A stretch of DNA of 64,000 nt, taken from assembly GCF_046105845.1 (NCBI RefSeq), contig NZ_CP151004.1. One strand, given 5' to 3'. Positions 7,654 through 61,123 of this stretch are shown piece after piece. The position numbers and the translations under genes are program-made. Position 1 is the first letter of the stretch. Each line of letters starts with the position of its first letter. The notes beneath the pieces were generated by a model that was not told the DNA's origin, did no database searches, and saw nothing but the letters and a program-made list of their open reading frames with translations. The stretch is from Escherichia coli. GTDB lineage: Bacteria > Pseudomonadota > Gammaproteobacteria > Enterobacterales > Enterobacteriaceae.

Positions 7654-10158
7654 ATGTCACAAACTATCGACCTGACCCTGGACGGCCTGTCCTGCGGTCA
7701 CTGCGTTAAACGCGTGAAAGAAAGTCTCGAACAGCGCCCGGATGTTGAGCAGGCGGATGTGTCTGTCACTGAAGCGCACGTTACCGGGACTGCCAGTGCA
7801 GAACAGCTGATCGAAACCATCAAACAAGCGGGTTATGACGCATCTGTAAGCCACCCAAAGGCTAAACCGCTGGCGGAGTCATCAATCCCGTCGGAAGCAC
7901 TGACAGCGGTTTCTGAGGCGCTTCCGGCAGCGACCGCCGATGACGATGACAGCCAGCAGTTGCTGCTGAGCGGCATGAGCTGCGCCAGCTGTGTCACCCG
8001 CGTACAAAATGCGCTGCAAAGCGTACCGGGCGTCACTCAGGCACGGGTAAACCTGGCGGAGCGTACTGCGCTGGTGATGGGCAGTGCCTCCCCACAAGAT
8101 TTAGTGCAGGCGGTGGAAAAAGCGGGCTACGGCGCGGAAGCGATTGAAGATGACGCTAAACGCCGCGAGCGCCAGCAAGAAACCGCCGTCGCTACGATGA
8201 AGCGCTTCCGCTGGCAGGCGATTGTCGCACTGGCGGTGGGTATCCCGGTGATGGTCTGGGGGATGATCGGCGATAACATGATGGTCACCGCCGACAACCG
8301 CAGCCTGTGGTTGGTTATCGGCCTGATAACCCTGGCGGTAATGGTTTTCGCCGGCGGGCATTTTTACCGCAGCGCATGGAAAAGCCTGCTGAACGGTGCA
8401 GCGACGATGGATACGCTGGTGGCGCTAGGTACTGGCGTGGCGTGGCTCTATTCGATGAGCGTCAACCTGTGGCCGCAGTGGTTCCCGATGGAAGCGCGAC
8501 ATCTTTATTACGAAGCCAGTGCGATGATTATCGGTTTGATTAATCTCGGCCATATGCTGGAAGCACGCGCACGTCAGCGTTCTTCTAAGGCGCTGGAGAA
8601 ATTACTCGATTTAACCCCACCGACGGCGCGCCTGGTTACTGACGAAGGTGAAAAAAGCGTGCCTCTGGCAGAAGTGCAGCCAGGTATGTTGCTGCGCCTG
8701 ACGACCGGCGATCGCGTGCCGGTAGATGGCGAGATTACCCAGGGCGAAGCATGGCTGGATGAAGCGATGCTGACGGGCGAACCAATCCCGCAGCAAAAAG
8801 GCGAAGGCGATAGCGTCCATGCCGGGACAGTGGTACAGGACGGCAGTGTGCTGTTTCGTGCCAGTGCGGTCGGCAGCCATACTACGCTGTCACGAATCAT
8901 TCGCATGGTGCGCCAGGCCCAGAGCAGCAAGCCTGAAATCGGCCAACTGGCGGATAAAATCTCCGCTGTGTTTGTGCCGGTGGTGGTAGTCATTGCGCTG
9001 GTCAGTGCGGCAATCTGGTATTTCTTTGGCCCGGCACCGCAAATTGTTTATACCCTGGTGATTGCCACCACGGTGCTGATTATCGCCTGTCCGTGTGCGC
9101 TGGGACTGGCGACGCCGATGTCGATTATTTCGGGCGTCGGGCGGGCGGCTGAGTTTGGTGTGCTGGTGCGGGACGCCGACGCGCTGCAACGCGCCAGTAC
9201 GCTCGACACCGTGGTGTTCGATAAAACCGGGACGCTGACCGAAGGGAAGCCGCAGGTTGTCGCAGTAAAAACATTTGCTGATATTGATGAAGCGCAAGCA
9301 TTGCGTCTGGCGGCGGCGCTGGAGCAAGGTTCCAGCCACCCGCTGGCACGGGCGATCCTCGATAAAGCAGGTGATATGCAGCTACCGCAGGTCAACGGTT
9401 TCCGCACATTGCGCGGGCTGGGTGTGAGCGGTGAAGCTGAAGGTCATGCGGTATTGCTGGGCAATCAGGCGCTGTTAAATGACCAGCAAGTTGATACTAA
9501 AGCGATTGAGGCAGATATTTCAGCTCAGGCATCGCAAGGGGCAACGCCTGTGCTGCTGGCGGTTGACGGGAAAGCGGTGGCCTTGCTGGCAGTACGCGAT
9601 CCGTTGCGTAACGATAGCGTGGCGGCGCTGCAACGTCTGCATAAAGCGGGATATCGTCTGGTGATGTTGACCGGGGATAACCCAACCACCGCCAATGCGA
9701 TCGCCAAAGAAGCAGGGATTGATGAGGTGATCGCCGGGGTGCTGCCGGACGGTAAAGCCGAAGCGATCAAACGTCTGCAAAGTGAAGGACGTCAGGTGGC
9801 AATGGTGGGCGACGGCATTAACGACGCGCCAGCGCTGGCCCAGGCGGATGTCGGTATTGCGATGGGTGGCGGCAGTGATGTTGCCATTGAAACCGCGGCG
9901 ATTACCCTGATGCGCCATAGCCTGATGGGTGTTGCAGATGCGCTCGCGATTTCCCGCGCAACGCTGCGCAATATGAAGCAGAACCTGCTCGGTGCGTTTA
10001 TCTACAACAGCATTGGTATTCCGGTCGCCGCCGGTATTTTGTGGCCGTTCACTGGAACACTGCTTAACCCGGTGGTTGCCGGAGCGGCAATGGCGCTATC
10101 GTCGATTACCGTAGTGAGTAACGCCAACCGGTTACTGCGGTTTAAACCGAAAGAGTGA
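7654..10158 (+). CDS. copA: Cu(I)-translocating P-type ATPase
   Basis: 834-aa ORF with two N-terminal GMSCxxC metal-binding domains, CPC and DKTGT motifs. Confidence 0.96.
7854..7860 (+). other. copA: Programmed -1 ribosomal frameshift site in copA (slippery heptamer C CCA AAG) giving the CopA(Z) chaperone
   Basis: CCCAAAG lies in the 0 frame at codons 67-69; the -1 frame reads CCC AAA GGC TAA, terminating after ~70 aa. Confidence 0.7.
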
Positions 10159-10234
10159 TTGGTATTTACTTAATGCGTTTGTGAGATCCAGTTCTTGTTG
10201 CGCTCCTTTTATGAGTAATGCCATATAAAGTGAC

Positions 10235-10560
10235 TGGCGCAGGGAGCGCGCAGGGGGCGGCCAATCGCCGCCGCCCCCTGCCCCCCCGGGCTCTGGCGAA
10301 CAAAATCGCCGCTGCGCGGTACCCTCAGCTTATCCCTTGCGGCTACCGGGTCGGGCGCGAGGTAACATCCCTGTAAAACGCGCCCTCAGCCCACATCCAT
10401 GTGGGCTGCCCCGGCCTTCAGGGAACGCCTCGGCGATTTTGACGCCACCAACACCGGTGCAGTCTTTCGTTTCAAAGCAAAAACAATTTTTCGATCATAT
10501 TTAAGCTACCACTGAACAAGCCTCATAACTCCATTTGCGCCATCCCTCCCTGCGCGCTAG
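10235..10560. repeat. GC-rich intergenic element with nested inverted repeats, unknown function
   Basis: 10-bp inverted repeat gcgcagggag (10237-10246) / ctccctgcgc (10546-10555); inner inverted repeat aaaatcgccg (10302-10311) / cggcgatttt (10431-10440); perfect 11-bp GC stem 10251-10261 / 10270-10280; hairpin 10388-10407. No ORF of 60 aa or more. Confidence 0.4.
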
Positions 10561-10586
10561 CATGATATTTCACAAAGGGAGGTCGT

Positions 10587-11381
10587 ATGGATCTGTTGTA
10601 CCGGGTAAAAACGCTTTGGGCCGCGCTGCGCGGTAATCATTACACCTGGCCTGCTATCGATATCTCTCTTCCCGGCAATCGCCATTTTCATCTGCTCGGC
10701 AGTATTCATATGGGTAGCCACGATATGGCTCCCCTGCCCACCCGTTTGCTCAAAAAGCTCAAAAACGCCGATGCGCTGATCGTCGAGGCGGATGTTTCCA
10801 CCAGCGATACGCCTTTTGCTAATTTGCCTGCCTGCGAGGCGCTGGAAGAGCGCATTAGCGAGGAGCAACTCCAAAACCTGCAGCACATTAGCCAGGAGAT
10901 GGGCATTTCTACCTCACTCTTTTCTACCCAACCGCTGTGGCAAATCGCGATGGTTCTTCAGGCGACACAGGCGCAAAAACTGGGGCTGCGGGCAGAGTAT
11001 GGTATCGATTACCAGCTATTGCAGGCGGCGAAGCAACAACATAAATCCGTGATTGAACTGGAAGGGGCAGAAAACCAGATTGCCATGTTGCTCCAGCTCC
11101 CTGACAACGGACTGGCGCTGCTGGACGATACGCTGACCCACTGGCACACCAATGCACGGTTGCTGCAACAAATGATGAGCTGGTGGCTGAACACGCCGCC
11201 GCAAAATAATGAAATAACGCTGCCTAATACGTTCAGTCAGTCGCTGTACGATGTGTTGATGCATCAGCGAAATCTCGCCTGGCGGGATAAATTACGCGCC
11301 ATGCCGCCGGGGCGATATGTGGTCGCGGTCGGTGCACTACACCTGTATGGAGAAGGGAATTTACCGCAAATGTTGCGCTAA
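10587..11381 (+). CDS. ybaP: TraB-family protein YbaP
   Basis: 264-aa ORF matching recalled YbaP. Confidence 0.9.
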   Translation: MDLLYRVKTLWAALRGNHYTWPAIDISLPGNRHFHLLGSIHMGSHDMAPLPTRLLKKLKNADALIVEADVSTSDTPFANLPACEALEERISEEQLQNLQHISQEMGISTSLFSTQPLWQIAMVLQATQAQKLGLRAEYGIDYQLLQAAKQQHKSVIELEGAENQIAMLLQLPDNGLALLDDTLTHWHTNARLLQQMMSWWLNTPPQNNEITLPNTFSQSLYDVLMHQRNLAWRDKLRAMPPGRYVVAVGALHLYGEGNLPQMLR

Positions 11382-11463
11382 AAAAATGGCCAATATCGCT
11401 ATTGGCCCGTCAAAGAGGAATTTCATTTTTTTATTATTATGCCGTCACTTTAAGCGACGGTGT
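11381..11463 (-). ncRNA. chiX: ChiX (MicM/SroB) Hfq-dependent sRNA
   Basis: Minus strand reads ACACCGTCGCTTAAAGTGACGGCATAATAATAAAAAAATGAAATTCCTCTTTGACGGGCCAATAGCGATATTGGCCATTTTTTT, matching recalled ChiX including terminator hairpin and U-tract; in the ybaK-ybaP intergenic region as in K-12. Confidence 0.85.
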
Positions 11464-25970: not shown

Positions 25971-27902
25971 TCAAATGGGGCGGATACTTTCTTCATCCAG
26001 CTCCGCATCGAAGAACCGACGCAGGGTCTGAATATTATTATCCGCAATAATGGACTCGCGCGCCTGCGCAAGTTTTTCTTCGTATATCGCCTGACGCCAT
26101 TCCAGCGGCGTACGCACCGCGGGATTATCATCTTCAACGATAGTCAGTTCAACCGTTGAACCTTTTAACGTGCTCAACGCTTCAGCCAGTTTTTGCTGTG
26201 CACCGCGGTTGTTCAAATGCCGCTGAGAGGAGCGCAAATGCAGACATACTGCGTTGTCGCTCTCCTCTTTCCAGGCATTTAGCGCCACCTGTTCGACCAG
26301 TTTTGGTAGCGAAAGTTGGCTCACCTGTGCCGCCCACGGGTCGCGCTCAATGGCTTCTGCCGCCAGCTTCGCCGCCAGTTCCGGCGTTTTTTCATGTTCC
26401 AGCGCTTTTTTTAGCGCCTTCGGCGTGGCGACCACTTCTTTTTGCTGCATCACTGGAGTGGTGGCCTTCCAGCGATACGCTTCTTTTTTGGCTGGCGCTT
26501 TTTCCAGCGCCGATGGCACCGGGCGCGCCTGAACGCGATCGGTGACCGAAGCCAGTCTTTCCAGCGCAGCGTTATTCACCGGCCGCGCGCGGGTAGCGGC
26601 TGCCGGTTCACTCTTTTTTGCTTTGGTTGCTCCCTGCACGCGCTGCAACTGCTGGCGCGCCGCCAGCACCTGGCTGGTGGTTTCCGGGAGCGGTACAGTC
26701 GGTGCCTGCTGCGGCGCTGATTGCGGTTGCGGCGGCACCTGTGTTGGCGTCATTACTGCCGTTGGCGCGACGGGCGCAAAGGACTGGCGTGGCACTTCTG
26801 GCTCAGGCAGCGGCATACGCGGATGGAACGCCAGCGCGCGAAGCAGCGTCATCTCAACGCCCATACGGCGGTCTGGCGCATACGGTAATTCTTTGCGACC
26901 AATCAACAGCGTCTGATAGTAAAGCTGAATATCCGTCGGCGGTATGGTGCGCGCCAGTTCACGCATCCGCAGCTCGATGGCAGCCATGTCGTTGCCAAGT
27001 GCAGCAGGCGAAAGTTGTACCATCGCAATACGATGCAACAGACCGAGCATTTCCACCAGCAACGCTTCCCACTCGATACCACGGGCAGCGGCTTCATTAA
27101 TCAGCGCCATTACGCGCTCGCCGTTGGCCTCGACCATCGCTTCAACCAGCGACAGCGCCTGATCGTCGTCAAGCGTACCCAGCATCGCACTGACCGCCTG
27201 AGTTGAAACCTGGCCGTCACCGCTGGCAATCGCCTGGTCGGTCAGACTTAAGGCATCTCGCAGGCTGCCTTCAGCGGCGCGTGCCAGCAATTGCAGCGCC
27301 CGCGGCTCGTGAGCGATATGTTCTTCGTTGAGGATGTGCTCAAGCTGATGGCGAATTTGCTCGACATCCAGCGCCTTGAGATGAAATTGCAGACAACGTG
27401 ACAAAATCGTCACCGGCAATTTCTGCGGATCGGTCGTCGCCAGCAGAAACTTAACGTGCTCCGGCGGCTCTTCAAGGGTTTTTAACAGTGCGTTAAAGCT
27501 GTGGCGCGACAGCATATGCACTTCGTCGATCAAATAAACTTTGAAACGACCACGCGCCGGAGCGTACTGGACGTTATCCAGCAGGTCGCGGGTATCTTCA
27601 ACTTTGGTGCGCGAGGCGGCGTCGATTTCAATCAGATCGACAAAGCGCCCCTGCTCGATTTCACGACAGTTATCGCACACGCCGCACGGCGTCGCGGTAA
27701 TGCCGGTTTCGCAGTTTAGCCCCTTCGCCAGCAGTCGGGCGATAGAGGTTTTTCCGACGCCACGGGTACCGGAAAAAAGATAAGCATGATGAATACGCCC
27801 TAACGACAAGCCGTTCGCCAGTGCGGTCAGCACATGTTCCTGGCCGACGACGTCAGCAAAGGTTTGTGGGCGCCATTTTCGGGCTAAGACCTGATAACTC
27901 AT
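25971..27902 (-). CDS. dnaX: DNA polymerase III subunits tau and gamma
   Basis: 643-aa ORF with AAA+ motifs (GTRGVGKT) and internal frameshift site. Confidence 0.97.
   Translation of the reverse strand: MSYQVLARKWRPQTFADVVGQEHVLTALANGLSLGRIHHAYLFSGTRGVGKTSIARLLAKGLNCETGITATPCGVCDNCREIEQGRFVDLIEIDAASRTKVEDTRDLLDNVQYAPARGRFKVYLIDEVHMLSRHSFNALLKTLEEPPEHVKFLLATTDPQKLPVTILSRCLQFHLKALDVEQIRHQLEHILNEEHIAHEPRALQLLARAAEGSLRDALSLTDQAIASGDGQVSTQAVSAMLGTLDDDQALSLVEAMVEANGERVMALINEAAARGIEWEALLVEMLGLLHRIAMVQLSPAALGNDMAAIELRMRELARTIPPTDIQLYYQTLLIGRKELPYAPDRRMGVEMTLLRALAFHPRMPLPEPEVPRQSFAPVAPTAVMTPTQVPPQPQSAPQQAPTVPLPETTSQVLAARQQLQRVQGATKAKKSEPAAATRARPVNNAALERLASVTDRVQARPVPSALEKAPAKKEAYRWKATTPVMQQKEVVATPKALKKALEHEKTPELAAKLAAEAIERDPWAAQVSQLSLPKLVEQVALNAWKEESDNAVCLHLRSSQRHLNNRGAQQKLAEALSTLKGSTVELTIVEDDNPAVRTPLEWRQAIYEEKLAQARESIIADNNIQTLRRFFDAELDEESIRPI
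26613..26619 (-). other. dnaX: dnaX programmed -1 frameshift site (A AAA AAG) producing gamma
   Basis: Minus strand reads GCAGGGAGCAACCAAAGCAAAAAAGAGTGAACCGGCAGCC...: SD-like AGGGAG upstream, heptamer, then a stem-loop; the -1 frame stops at GAG TGA. Confidence 0.85.
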
Positions 27903-43262: not shown

Positions 43263-43376
43263 GGGTGGGGGCCCTGCCAGCTACATCCCGGCACACGCGT
43301 CATCTGCCTTGGCTGCTTCCTTCCGGACCTGACCTGGTAAACAGAGTAGCGTTGCGGGAGAACCAACAGAGCCCCC
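43263..43376 (-). ncRNA. ffs: 4.5S RNA (signal recognition particle RNA)
   Basis: Minus strand reads GGGGGCTCTGTTGGTTCTCCCGCAACGCTACTCTGTTTACCAGGTCAGGTCCGGAAGGAAGCAGCCAAGGCAGATGACGCGTGTGCCGGGATGTAGCTGGCAGGGCCCCCACCC, matching recalled 114-nt ffs. Confidence 0.95.
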
Positions 43377-60936: not shown

Positions 60937-61018
60937 AGAGCTCTCTCTTAGTTTAATTTCCGCCAGGTAATCAGATGACACGACTGTGCTTCACGCCATC
61001 TATTAACATGTACGTCAG

Positions 61019-61046
61019 TATATGGGGATGTTTCCCCCACATTCAA
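61019..61046 (-). promoter_or_regulatory. Heat-shock (sigma32-type) promoter of lon
   Basis: Minus strand reads TTGAAT (-35), 13-nt spacer, CCCCATATA (-10). Confidence 0.55.
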
Positions 61047-61123
61047 CGCCGAGAATAGAGGAAAAATTAAAGGGGAGATAAAATCCCCCCTTTTTGGTTA
61101 ACTAATTGTATGGGAATGGTTAA

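Follow-up and report, generated by a model that had tools for sequence, protein, structure and literature searches.

The 64,000-nucleotide stretch of Escherichia coli contig NZ_CP151004.1 (assembly GCF_046105845.1) analyzed here, hereafter the window, almost certainly contains, at positions 10172-10498 between copA and ybaP, one intact copy (~327 bp) of a repeat of about 300 bp that is dispersed in intergenic DNA. The repeat carries a strongly conserved, covarying secondary structure that, on balance, we take to be under selection on the minus strand, at the level of RNA or of a single strand, and its core is likely related to TwoAYGGAY (RF01731), which to our knowledge has been an orphan RNA motif without known function since 2010. 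The most fitting description of the element is that of an unannotated repeat family and a new variant of this orphan class from enterobacteria. An overall explanation in which it constitutes a structured minus-strand RNA repeat, related to TwoAYGGAY and with proposed CsrA binding, has in our estimate an even chance of being correct. The element was brought to attention by an original prediction, made from the letters of the window, that described a GC-rich, palindrome-dense non-coding segment at 10235-10560 and considered three possibilities for it: a structured RNA, a miniature element with inverted repeats or a scar left by a replacement event. The structured-RNA option agrees with the conserved fold reported below, even though the prediction had not considered which strand folds.

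The original prediction treated the segment as an oddity of one locus, which it is not, since K-12 has three copies elsewhere. When searched with megablast, the 256-bp core of the element was found in 5425 of the 5426 complete E. coli genomes, at one to eight places in each (median 3), and a search in blastn mode with the 155-nt inner domain returned one to ten places per E. coli genome, with three in K-12-type genomes. The core is 100% identical in the carrier strain CFSAN018748 (NZ_CP028192.1). Besides the copA-ybaP spacer, copies occupy the intergenic regions aqpZ-lysO (in K-12 and many other strains; the K-12 copy lies at 915,015-915,285 on the plus strand), yohP-dusC and alx-sstT. A further K-12 copy is located at 2,229,118-2,229,386 on the minus strand. 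The family is also present in E. albertii, E. whittamii and further Escherichia species, as well as in Pseudocitrobacter, Klebsiella pneumoniae and K. aerogenes, reaching 13 places in one K. pneumoniae record of 5.37 Mb that is labelled a plasmid. Most "plasmid" matches of the element are chromosomal, because the records concerned are mislabelled chromosomes; records of chromosome size filed as plasmids in PLSDB comprise CP125156.1 (5.37 Mb), NZ_CP134663.1 (4.90 Mb), NZ_CP141089.1 (4.94 Mb) and NZ_OL790696.1 (4.80 Mb). The phage genomes searched contained no copy of the element, RefSeq annotates nothing at the copies inspected, and a literature search for sequence strings of the element found no paper containing them.

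On the minus strand, copies at different loci can be aligned over a range that starts about 35 nt 5' of GCACCGG and extends some 25 nt 3' of GGAGCGCAAC, and it is this range that sets the approximate ends of the element in the window (10172-10498); the boundaries originally proposed, 10235 and 10560, were misplaced on both sides. Identity between copies is 87-94% within Escherichia and 91-98% within Klebsiella, compared to 76-81% between the two, and this clustering by genus indicates amplification or homogenization after the genera split. Mobility or recombination of the unit may have spread the copies, or homogenized them, inside each genus. Klebsiella copies each have a REP-like palindrome ahead of them and remain conserved for about 80 nt further 3' than those of E. 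coli, and the K. pneumoniae pcaC-mscS spacer harbors two tandem copies (L010, 999-1318 and 1436-1755) that are 98.5% identical.

In the window, copA corresponds to the open reading frame (ORF) at 7654-10158 (+) and ybaP to that at 10587-11381 (+), as assigned with the ORF table and the best-matching RefSeq genomes, leaving a spacer of 428 bp. The same spacer spans 794 bp in K-12 MG1655, where it comprises three REP units and ybaQ, the latter on the strand opposite to copA and ybaP. The gap size given by the original prediction, and its description of a larger K-12 spacer with ybaQ, were therefore accurate, as was its statement that ybaQ is missing: a tblastn search with K-12 YbaQ against the whole window gave no match at E≤10. 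When both spacers are aligned, clear homology stops at the copA stop codon and restarts at about 10510. The segment differing from K-12 thus runs from 10159 to about 10510, and the repeat element occupies nearly all of it, supporting the suggestion that the segment stands in place of ybaQ and the REPs. It is also GC-rich, as had been noted, with a GC content of 0.62-0.73 over 10200-10450 compared to 0.43 just upstream and 0.42-0.52 just downstream. The original prediction had stated that identity with the K-12 intergenic sequence, or membership in a known repeat family with many genomic copies and no transcript, would speak against it; the three K-12 copies go part of the way towards the latter, but the segment is not identical to the K-12 spacer.

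The full 428-bp spacer is present in only 346 E. coli genomes (6%) of the 5426 complete genomes searched, and the ybaQ allele is carried by at least 3564. The haplotype found upstream of ybaP in the window occurs at ≥99% identity in 350 genomes and tracks the element allele (346 genomes), so that the latter marks one lineage. The element sits at copA-ybaP in a minority E. coli lineage, at a site where most strains have REPs and ybaQ, and its allele accounts for why about 6% of E. coli genomes have lost ybaQ, a gene of the HigA family.

To characterize the structure, we aligned 27 distinct copies in the orientation of the minus strand of the window and derived a consensus with RNAalifold, which predicts 76 pairs in 12 helices. 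Across the 76 pairs and 27 copies, 99.0% of the cells hold standard pairs, and changes on both sides of a pair were observed in 17 pairs and 110 cells, a level that none of 500 shuffles reached. In a control in which the pairing partners were slid by 1-3 columns, only 41-45% of cells remained paired and double changes almost disappeared. Compensation is exemplified by the GGGGGAGGA/UCCUCCCCC change in the GC-rich hairpin of the yohP-dusC copy of ST131 and by a three-pair rewrite of hairpin 1 (CGACGCGC/GCGCGGCG) in the alx-sstT copy of strain S51. Furthermore, a 281-nt stretch of the element has a minimum free energy of -145.1 kcal/mol on the minus strand (z -5.8) and of -130.4 kcal/mol on the plus strand (z -4.0), a difference of 15 kcal/mol in favor of the former, and none of 200 dinucleotide shuffles folded as well on either strand. 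Wobble pairs are likewise asymmetric, with 66 G-U cells on the minus strand versus 14 C-A cells, which would read as G-U on the plus strand. The asymmetry in wobble pairs and the better folding energy both point to the minus strand as the one under selection. Indels of a single nucleotide inside the core separate the genera and rule out a conserved reading frame; together with the empty tblastn search and the compensating substitutions in the stems, they dispose of the idea that the segment is a ybaQ remnant or any other coding sequence. The notion that K-12 keeps the 5' leader of the element ahead of ybaQ was also discarded, since local alignments scored no better than shuffles.

The fold, described here 5' to 3' along the minus strand, begins with a weakly conserved 5' leader (UUGUUUUUGCUUUGAAACGAAAGACU, 10466-10498), recognized by alignment of the upstream flanks. 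It is followed by a closing stem of about 26 bp overall, in which a 5' arm made up of the outer stem and P1 (CACCGGUGUUGGUGGCGUCAAAAUCG, 10434-10459) pairs with a 3' arm (CGAUUUUGUUCGCCAGAGCCCGGGG, 10284-10308) to form helix 1, with 20 pairs of which 98.9% are paired and three show compensatory changes among the 27 copies. The inverted repeats listed in the original prediction were all recovered in place or displaced by at most 1 nt, and the one that it called inner, now extended to 16 nt with 88% complementarity (10301-10316 / 10426-10441), corresponds to CAAAAUCGCC/GGCGAUUUUG within this closing stem, its left part falling in the 3' arm. Several short junction helices lead from the closing stem to hairpin 1 (CAGCCCACAUGGAUGUGGGCUG, 10387-10408), the stem of which (helix 6) comprises eight pairs, all of them paired in every copy and three with compensatory changes. 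This is the hairpin that had been noted at 10388-10407, and its perfect 10-nt arms are located at 10387-10396 and 10399-10408. The AUGGAU of its loop (10395-10400) is invariant in the 27 copies.

Hairpin 2 (10353-10385), which reads GGGCGCG-UUUUACAGGGAUGUUACCU-CGCGCCC and combines helices 7 and 8, presents the apical sequence ACAGGGAUGU at 10365-10374, and its loop-closing pair covaries from A-U to G-C. The loop is AGGGAU in the window and AGGGAC, AAGGAC, AUGGAC or ACGGAC in other copies, so that its second position is N and not Y. Downstream of it, invariant alignment columns define a AAGGGAUAAG-type block (GGGAUAAG, 10329-10338). The GGGA of this block is predicted to pair with UCCC at 10421-10424 (helix 3), a pairing that the alignment neither supports nor contradicts because helix 3 never varies. 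A small hairpin within the closing stem (CCGCGCAGCGG, 10309-10319; helix 9) contributes four further pairs, one of which shows a compensatory change in six sequences.

Two additional hairpins lie 3' of the closing stem. The GC-rich hairpin GCAGGGGGCGGC-GGCGAUUG-GCCGCCCCCUGC (10250-10281; helix 10) is a perfect inverted repeat of 12 pairs, four of them with compensatory changes, and its stem is followed by no U-tract; the original prediction had correctly described this stem as perfect, but its arms (10250-10261 / 10270-10281) measure 12 nt, not 11. In the terminal hairpin (10200-10249; helices 11 and 12, 95-96% paired), GCGCUCCC at 10242-10249 pairs with AGGAGCGC at 10200-10207. The latter resembles a Shine-Dalgarno (SD) sequence (GGAG), with the former as its upstream anti-SD, and the variable loop of about 35 nt between them is wholly different in Escherichia and Klebsiella while the stem is kept. 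The element ends in a weakly conserved 3' tail (AACAAGAACUGGAUCUCACAAACGCAU, 10173-10199), as revealed by comparing the downstream flanks, which has no start codon in the window copy. In about 60% of the copies an AUG located 5-10 nt after GGAG opens unrelated ORFs of 2-25 codons, such as MMNQHITTS in the K-12 aqpZ copy, and a conserved small ORF after the SD-like sequence was rejected given that none is conserved among copies.

The terminal hairpin also bears on the outer inverted repeat of the original prediction (10237-10246 / 10546-10555). This is indeed a perfect 10-nt match, but it is not part of the element: its right arm lies in DNA upstream of ybaP that is common to K-12 and nearly all E. 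coli, from which we conclude that the match is coincidental. The right arm is absent beside other copies of the element and contains two mismatches in K-12, and the conserved partner of GGGAGCGC (10242-10249) is instead the SD-like sequence at 10200-10207. The two differences between the window and K-12 in 10546-10555 happen to yield perfect complementarity to 10237-10246.

The likely relationship to TwoAYGGAY was traced in several steps. The scan against Rfam suggested in the original prediction did return a TwoAYGGAY match on the minus strand, in which 10303-10442 aligns to the full model with 31.5 bits (E 0.011), a score that falls below the gathering score of 43. Other copies scored similarly (30.6 bits in K-12, 30.9 bits for the K-12 dusC copy and 36.6 bits in S51), and the matches to other Rfam families (C0719, ar7 and sR39) were at chance level and were dismissed. 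We then built a covariance model, R1, solely from the closing-stem domain of the enterobacterial family. In the window, this model detects exactly one copy, at 10293-10447 (-) with 187 bits, and it also matches end to end (model positions 1-156) a divergent Pseudocitrobacter element (L017, 2181-2335) with 64.2 bits and E 2.5e-12. The two-hairpin core of this divergent element (L017, 2218-2281) in turn reaches 49.2 bits with RF01731 and thereby exceeds the gathering score. This chain from R1 through the Pseudocitrobacter element to RF01731 makes it likely that the enterobacterial family is a diverged TwoAYGGAY branch with an added 3' domain. Of everything inspected, only one sequence passed the TwoAYGGAY threshold, namely the divergent L017 relative, which is the one that was scanned with Rfam. 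In Pseudocitrobacter, a family copy and a divergent relative stand with their 5' ends facing each other about 40-60 nt apart (L017, 1868-2139 (-) and 2181-2335 (+); L034, 5417-5571 (-) and 5633-5787 (+)), and the divergent subfamily is absent from E. coli.

The features of the element are in line with this assignment. Like TwoAYGGAY, it has a long P1, formed by the 20 pairs between 10434-10459 and 10284-10308, around two adjacent hairpins, the first of which displays an AYGGAY loop, AUGGAU, on a stem that covaries at three pairs. It is also present in multiple copies per genome without being tied to particular genes. In the original description of TwoAYGGAY, Weinberg and colleagues (2010) state that P1 is "often very large", and their alignment includes multi-copy Psychromonas elements with the same ACAUGGAUGU loops (PMC2864571); the E. 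coli and Klebsiella accessions that we searched for were not found in the part of that alignment covered. In contrast with TwoAYGGAY, most E. coli copies have AGGGAU as their second loop, P1 and the hairpins are joined by a larger junction that contains extra helices, the invariant GGGAUAAG block and the small CCGCGCAGCGG hairpin, and a conserved 3' domain composed of the GC-rich hairpin and the SD/anti-SD hairpin, missing from the Rfam model, has been added.

Comparison of strains revealed that the family varies between them. At aqpZ-lysO, the element points one way in some E. coli strains and the other way in others, and the rest of the spacer is unrelated (L005, 3016-3286, versus L008, 1971-2238, and L018, 3887-4155); the same holds at yohP-dusC (L043, 3119-3387, versus L009, 1961-2231). 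These differences suggest hot spots at which the sequence was replaced repeatedly, or was inverted and then diverged. At alx-sstT, the element of strain S51 (L006, 1718-2332) lies exactly where K-12 (L042, 3547-3944) has a BoxC-type repeat reading CCCTCTCCC...GGGAGAGGG...GGGGTGAGGG. This substitution and that of REPs by the element at copA-ybaP point to intergenic hot spots where repeat families replace one another, and different families appear to swap at the same sites. Should the element prove to be only a DNA repeat, it would still serve as a marker of such hot spots for REP, BoxC and itself. A comparison of filled with empty alleles and of inverted alleles uncovered no consistent or clean target-site duplication at the ends of the element, since these alleles differ by replacement of the whole spacer and no clean junction or duplication can be read from them. 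No transposase gene was adjacent to the element in any locus inspected. The variability in orientation argues against a gene-specific cis-regulatory role and fits a self-contained module.

Both hairpins fit the consensus for CsrA binding, and on these grounds we tentatively propose that the RNA of the element may bind CsrA, which we see as its most likely molecular activity, while considering this less probable than the structural and evolutionary claims made above. [quoted passage not shown] In hairpin 2, UUACAGGGAUGU matches 11 of the 12 positions of this consensus, hairpin 1 reads ACAUGGAUGU, and the GGA triplets of the two hairpins lie in loops, 28 nt from each other. TwoAYGGAY has been placed in CL00106, the Rfam clan of Csr-Rsm protein-binding RNAs (PMC5753348), and its loops were matched to the CsrA motif by Gardner and Eldai (PMC4333381). 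In the mechanism that we envisage, the minus strand would be transcribed by read-through from a neighboring gene or from a weak local promoter, the hairpins ACAUGGAUGU and UUACAGGGAUGU would be bound together by one CsrA dimer, and the resulting RNA would titrate CsrA or be stabilized or silenced by it.

The element shares with CsrB, CsrC, RsmX/Y/Z and McaS the presence of GGA motifs in hairpin loops that fit RUACARGGAUGU, at a spacing of 28 nt that suits bridging by a dimer. It differs from CsrB and CsrC in having only two loop sites and two further GGA motifs, compared to 9-22 in those RNAs, and from the Csr/Rsm small RNAs in lacking a predicted promoter or Rho-independent terminator of its own and in being a repeat of variable place and orientation, not a single regulated gene. 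A more far-reaching version of the proposal, which we regard as unlikely, is that mobile or recombining RNA modules acting as two-site CsrA clamps form a strain-variable layer of the Csr system, either as decoys or as portable, orientation-dependent CsrA-responsive cassettes; this would be the first function assigned to TwoAYGGAY. If the overall explanation is true, the best-studied bacterium possesses a structured RNA, about 300 nt long, covarying and without annotation, which occurs three times in K-12 and up to ten times in other genomes, which links to an orphan RNA class and for which binding of one CsrA dimer to two hairpins is predicted. Since strains vary in which sites carry a copy and in the direction in which it points, the copies could in that case add to strain-specific post-transcriptional wiring.

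A number of observations weigh against this explanation, at each of its levels. With respect to class, the window copy lies 11.5 bits below the gathering score of RF01731 and is hence outside the family by the Rfam rule, and its second loop is AGGGAU, not AYGGAY. With respect to structure, there are fewer independent covariation events than the cell counts suggest, because many of the double changes merely distinguish the Escherichia clade from that of Klebsiella. The occurrence of copies in both orientations relative to neighboring genes, which speaks against a gene-specific role in cis, is a further point, as is the failure to predict a sigma-70-like promoter or an intrinsic terminator on either strand of the window at 10100-10650 or of the K-12 copy. 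The portion of the PMC3175480 supplements consulted lists no small RNA at the coordinates of the K-12 copy, and no transcript evidence was found. Similarly, the part of the E. coli CsrA CLIP-seq (crosslinking and immunoprecipitation sequencing) supplements consulted (PMC5694010) has no peak at 915,07x-915,12x and is negative for the neighboring genes, a weak negative given that reads from repeats are often discarded. Finally, the stem of hairpin 1 measures 9 bp, while most CsrA SELEX ligands have at most four contiguous pairs (PMC7652899).

The most serious competitor to a structured RNA is a purely DNA-level palindromic intergenic repeat akin to a MITE (a miniature transposable element with inverted repeats), possibly the old RSA repeat, in which the stems would be terminal inverted repeats or hairpins recognized by proteins during transposition or recombination. 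Such an origin would account for a multi-copy and exclusively intergenic element, for its presence in both orientations at one site, for the polymorphism between filled and empty sites (BoxC in K-12 versus the element in S51; REPs in K-12 at the copA site), for the clustering of copies by genus, for the two tandem copies in Klebsiella and for the lack of a predicted promoter or terminator. The arms of the closing stem, moreover, read at the DNA level as imperfect terminal inverted repeats of about 26-30 bp. Yet these inverted repeats of ~26 bp enclose only the inner ~176 bp, and about 35 nt on the 5' side and 110-120 nt on the 3' side of the part that they bound are conserved along with it; since conserved sequence extends beyond both sides, the inverted repeats do not bound the unit. 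The miniature inverted-repeat option of the original prediction is thus borne out insofar as the element behaves as a dispersed, formerly mobile repeat, but not in the architecture of its ends, where no consistent target-site duplication is present, and no relative bearing a transposase was seen at any locus. The invariance of loop and junction nucleotides also speaks against a DNA-level repeat, as do the asymmetries in wobble pairs (66 versus 14) and folding energy, although single-stranded DNA intermediates could generate the latter two; the invariant loops and the wobble-pair asymmetry favor a single-stranded form, most likely RNA. As regards RSA, a summary of GenBank annotation lists six units of 150/151 bp in K-12 (PMC5172473), a size with which the closing-stem domain of about 155 bp is compatible, whereas the element occupies three places in that genome; this comparison is one of size and copy number only. 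We consider a repeat confined to the DNA level rather unlikely. The finding would become routine if the element were the catalogued RSA repeat without an RNA product, and would be strengthened by a transcript and by CsrA binding.

Bachellier and colleagues are said to have described in 1999 the enterobacterial intergenic palindromic repeats REP/BIME, BoxC, ERIC/IRU and RSA. The element resembles them in being intergenic, palindromic, multi-copy, strain-polymorphic and located at the same hot spots, but it is far longer (~300 bp), has few copies and adopts a complex, covarying multi-helix fold. Its sequence is unrelated to the K-12 REPs at copA-ybaP and to the BoxC repeat at alx-sstT. REP/BIME units are imperfect palindromes of about 35-40 bp with a GCCGGATGCGGCG-type consensus and hundreds of copies, in contrast to the 1-10 copies per genome of the element. 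The impression conveyed by the original prediction that the segment is neither REP nor ERIC was well founded, in that the K-12 REPs of the same locus align to nothing in it and, as far as could be told, it is not ERIC either. A functional analogy to REPs, in which the element would be a module of 3' untranslated regions whose stable helices block 3'-to-5' exonucleases or act as a barrier to transcription or ribosomes with no specific protein partner, could draw on its extremely stable fold (-145 kcal/mol), on its exchange with REP and BoxC, and on the fact that in six of eight contexts a co-oriented gene (yohP, dusC, alx, aqpZ, an mscS-like gene or ybhB) ends next to the 5' side of the folded strand. 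In the window and at K-12 aqpZ-lysO, however, the folded strand is antisense to both neighboring genes and hence outside their mRNAs, and simple stabilizers need neither invariant A-N-GGA-Y loops nor a conserved multi-helix junction, which makes this role improbable. Even less credence can be given to a decayed cis-regulatory leader or type I toxin-like locus, in which the anti-SD/SD hairpin would once have controlled a small ORF on the minus strand. The conserved pairing of GGAG with the upstream anti-SD in helices 11 and 12 and the AUG within 5-10 nt of GGAG in about 60% of copies are what such a locus would leave behind, but the ORFs of 2-25 codons are unrelated in sequence and do not begin in the same column of the alignment, a start codon is missing at this place from several copies, that of the window among them, and no conserved hydrophobic peptide of the sort encoded by type I toxin-antitoxin systems (hok/sok, ldr/rdl and ibs/sib) accompanies the SD/anti-SD helix.

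Some additional observations concern the surroundings of the element and its occurrence in databases. On the folded strand, the hexamer TATGAT (10494-10499, -) directly precedes the element on its 5' side. It was rejected as a -10 box, because no -35 box lies at a suitable distance and the promoter scan makes no call there. For K-12 ybaQ a single promoter-like site is predicted; the hexamer resembles its -10 box and approximates it in position, but differs in the -35 spacing. Contigs labelled as Pseudobutyrivibrio (L015), Bacillus sp. (L032), Ensifer sp. (L033) and a Sporobacter metagenome-assembled genome (L026) also contain the element, as copies or as fragments, with 82-89% identity to the window copy in the parts that align. 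Three of these contigs are 432-583 bp long with a read coverage below 1, and the fourth, L026, has a length of 2.9 kb, a coverage of about 51x and a copy of the Klebsiella type; most likely, all of them stem from contamination or mis-binning. Elsewhere in the window, Rfam matches above threshold correspond to sroB (ChiX) at 11380-11463 (-), just downstream of ybaP, the dnaX frameshift element at 26574-26638 (-), the 4.5S/SRP RNA at 43272-43368 (-) and sraA at 61008-61103 (+), all of which are expected in this region of the E. coli chromosome.

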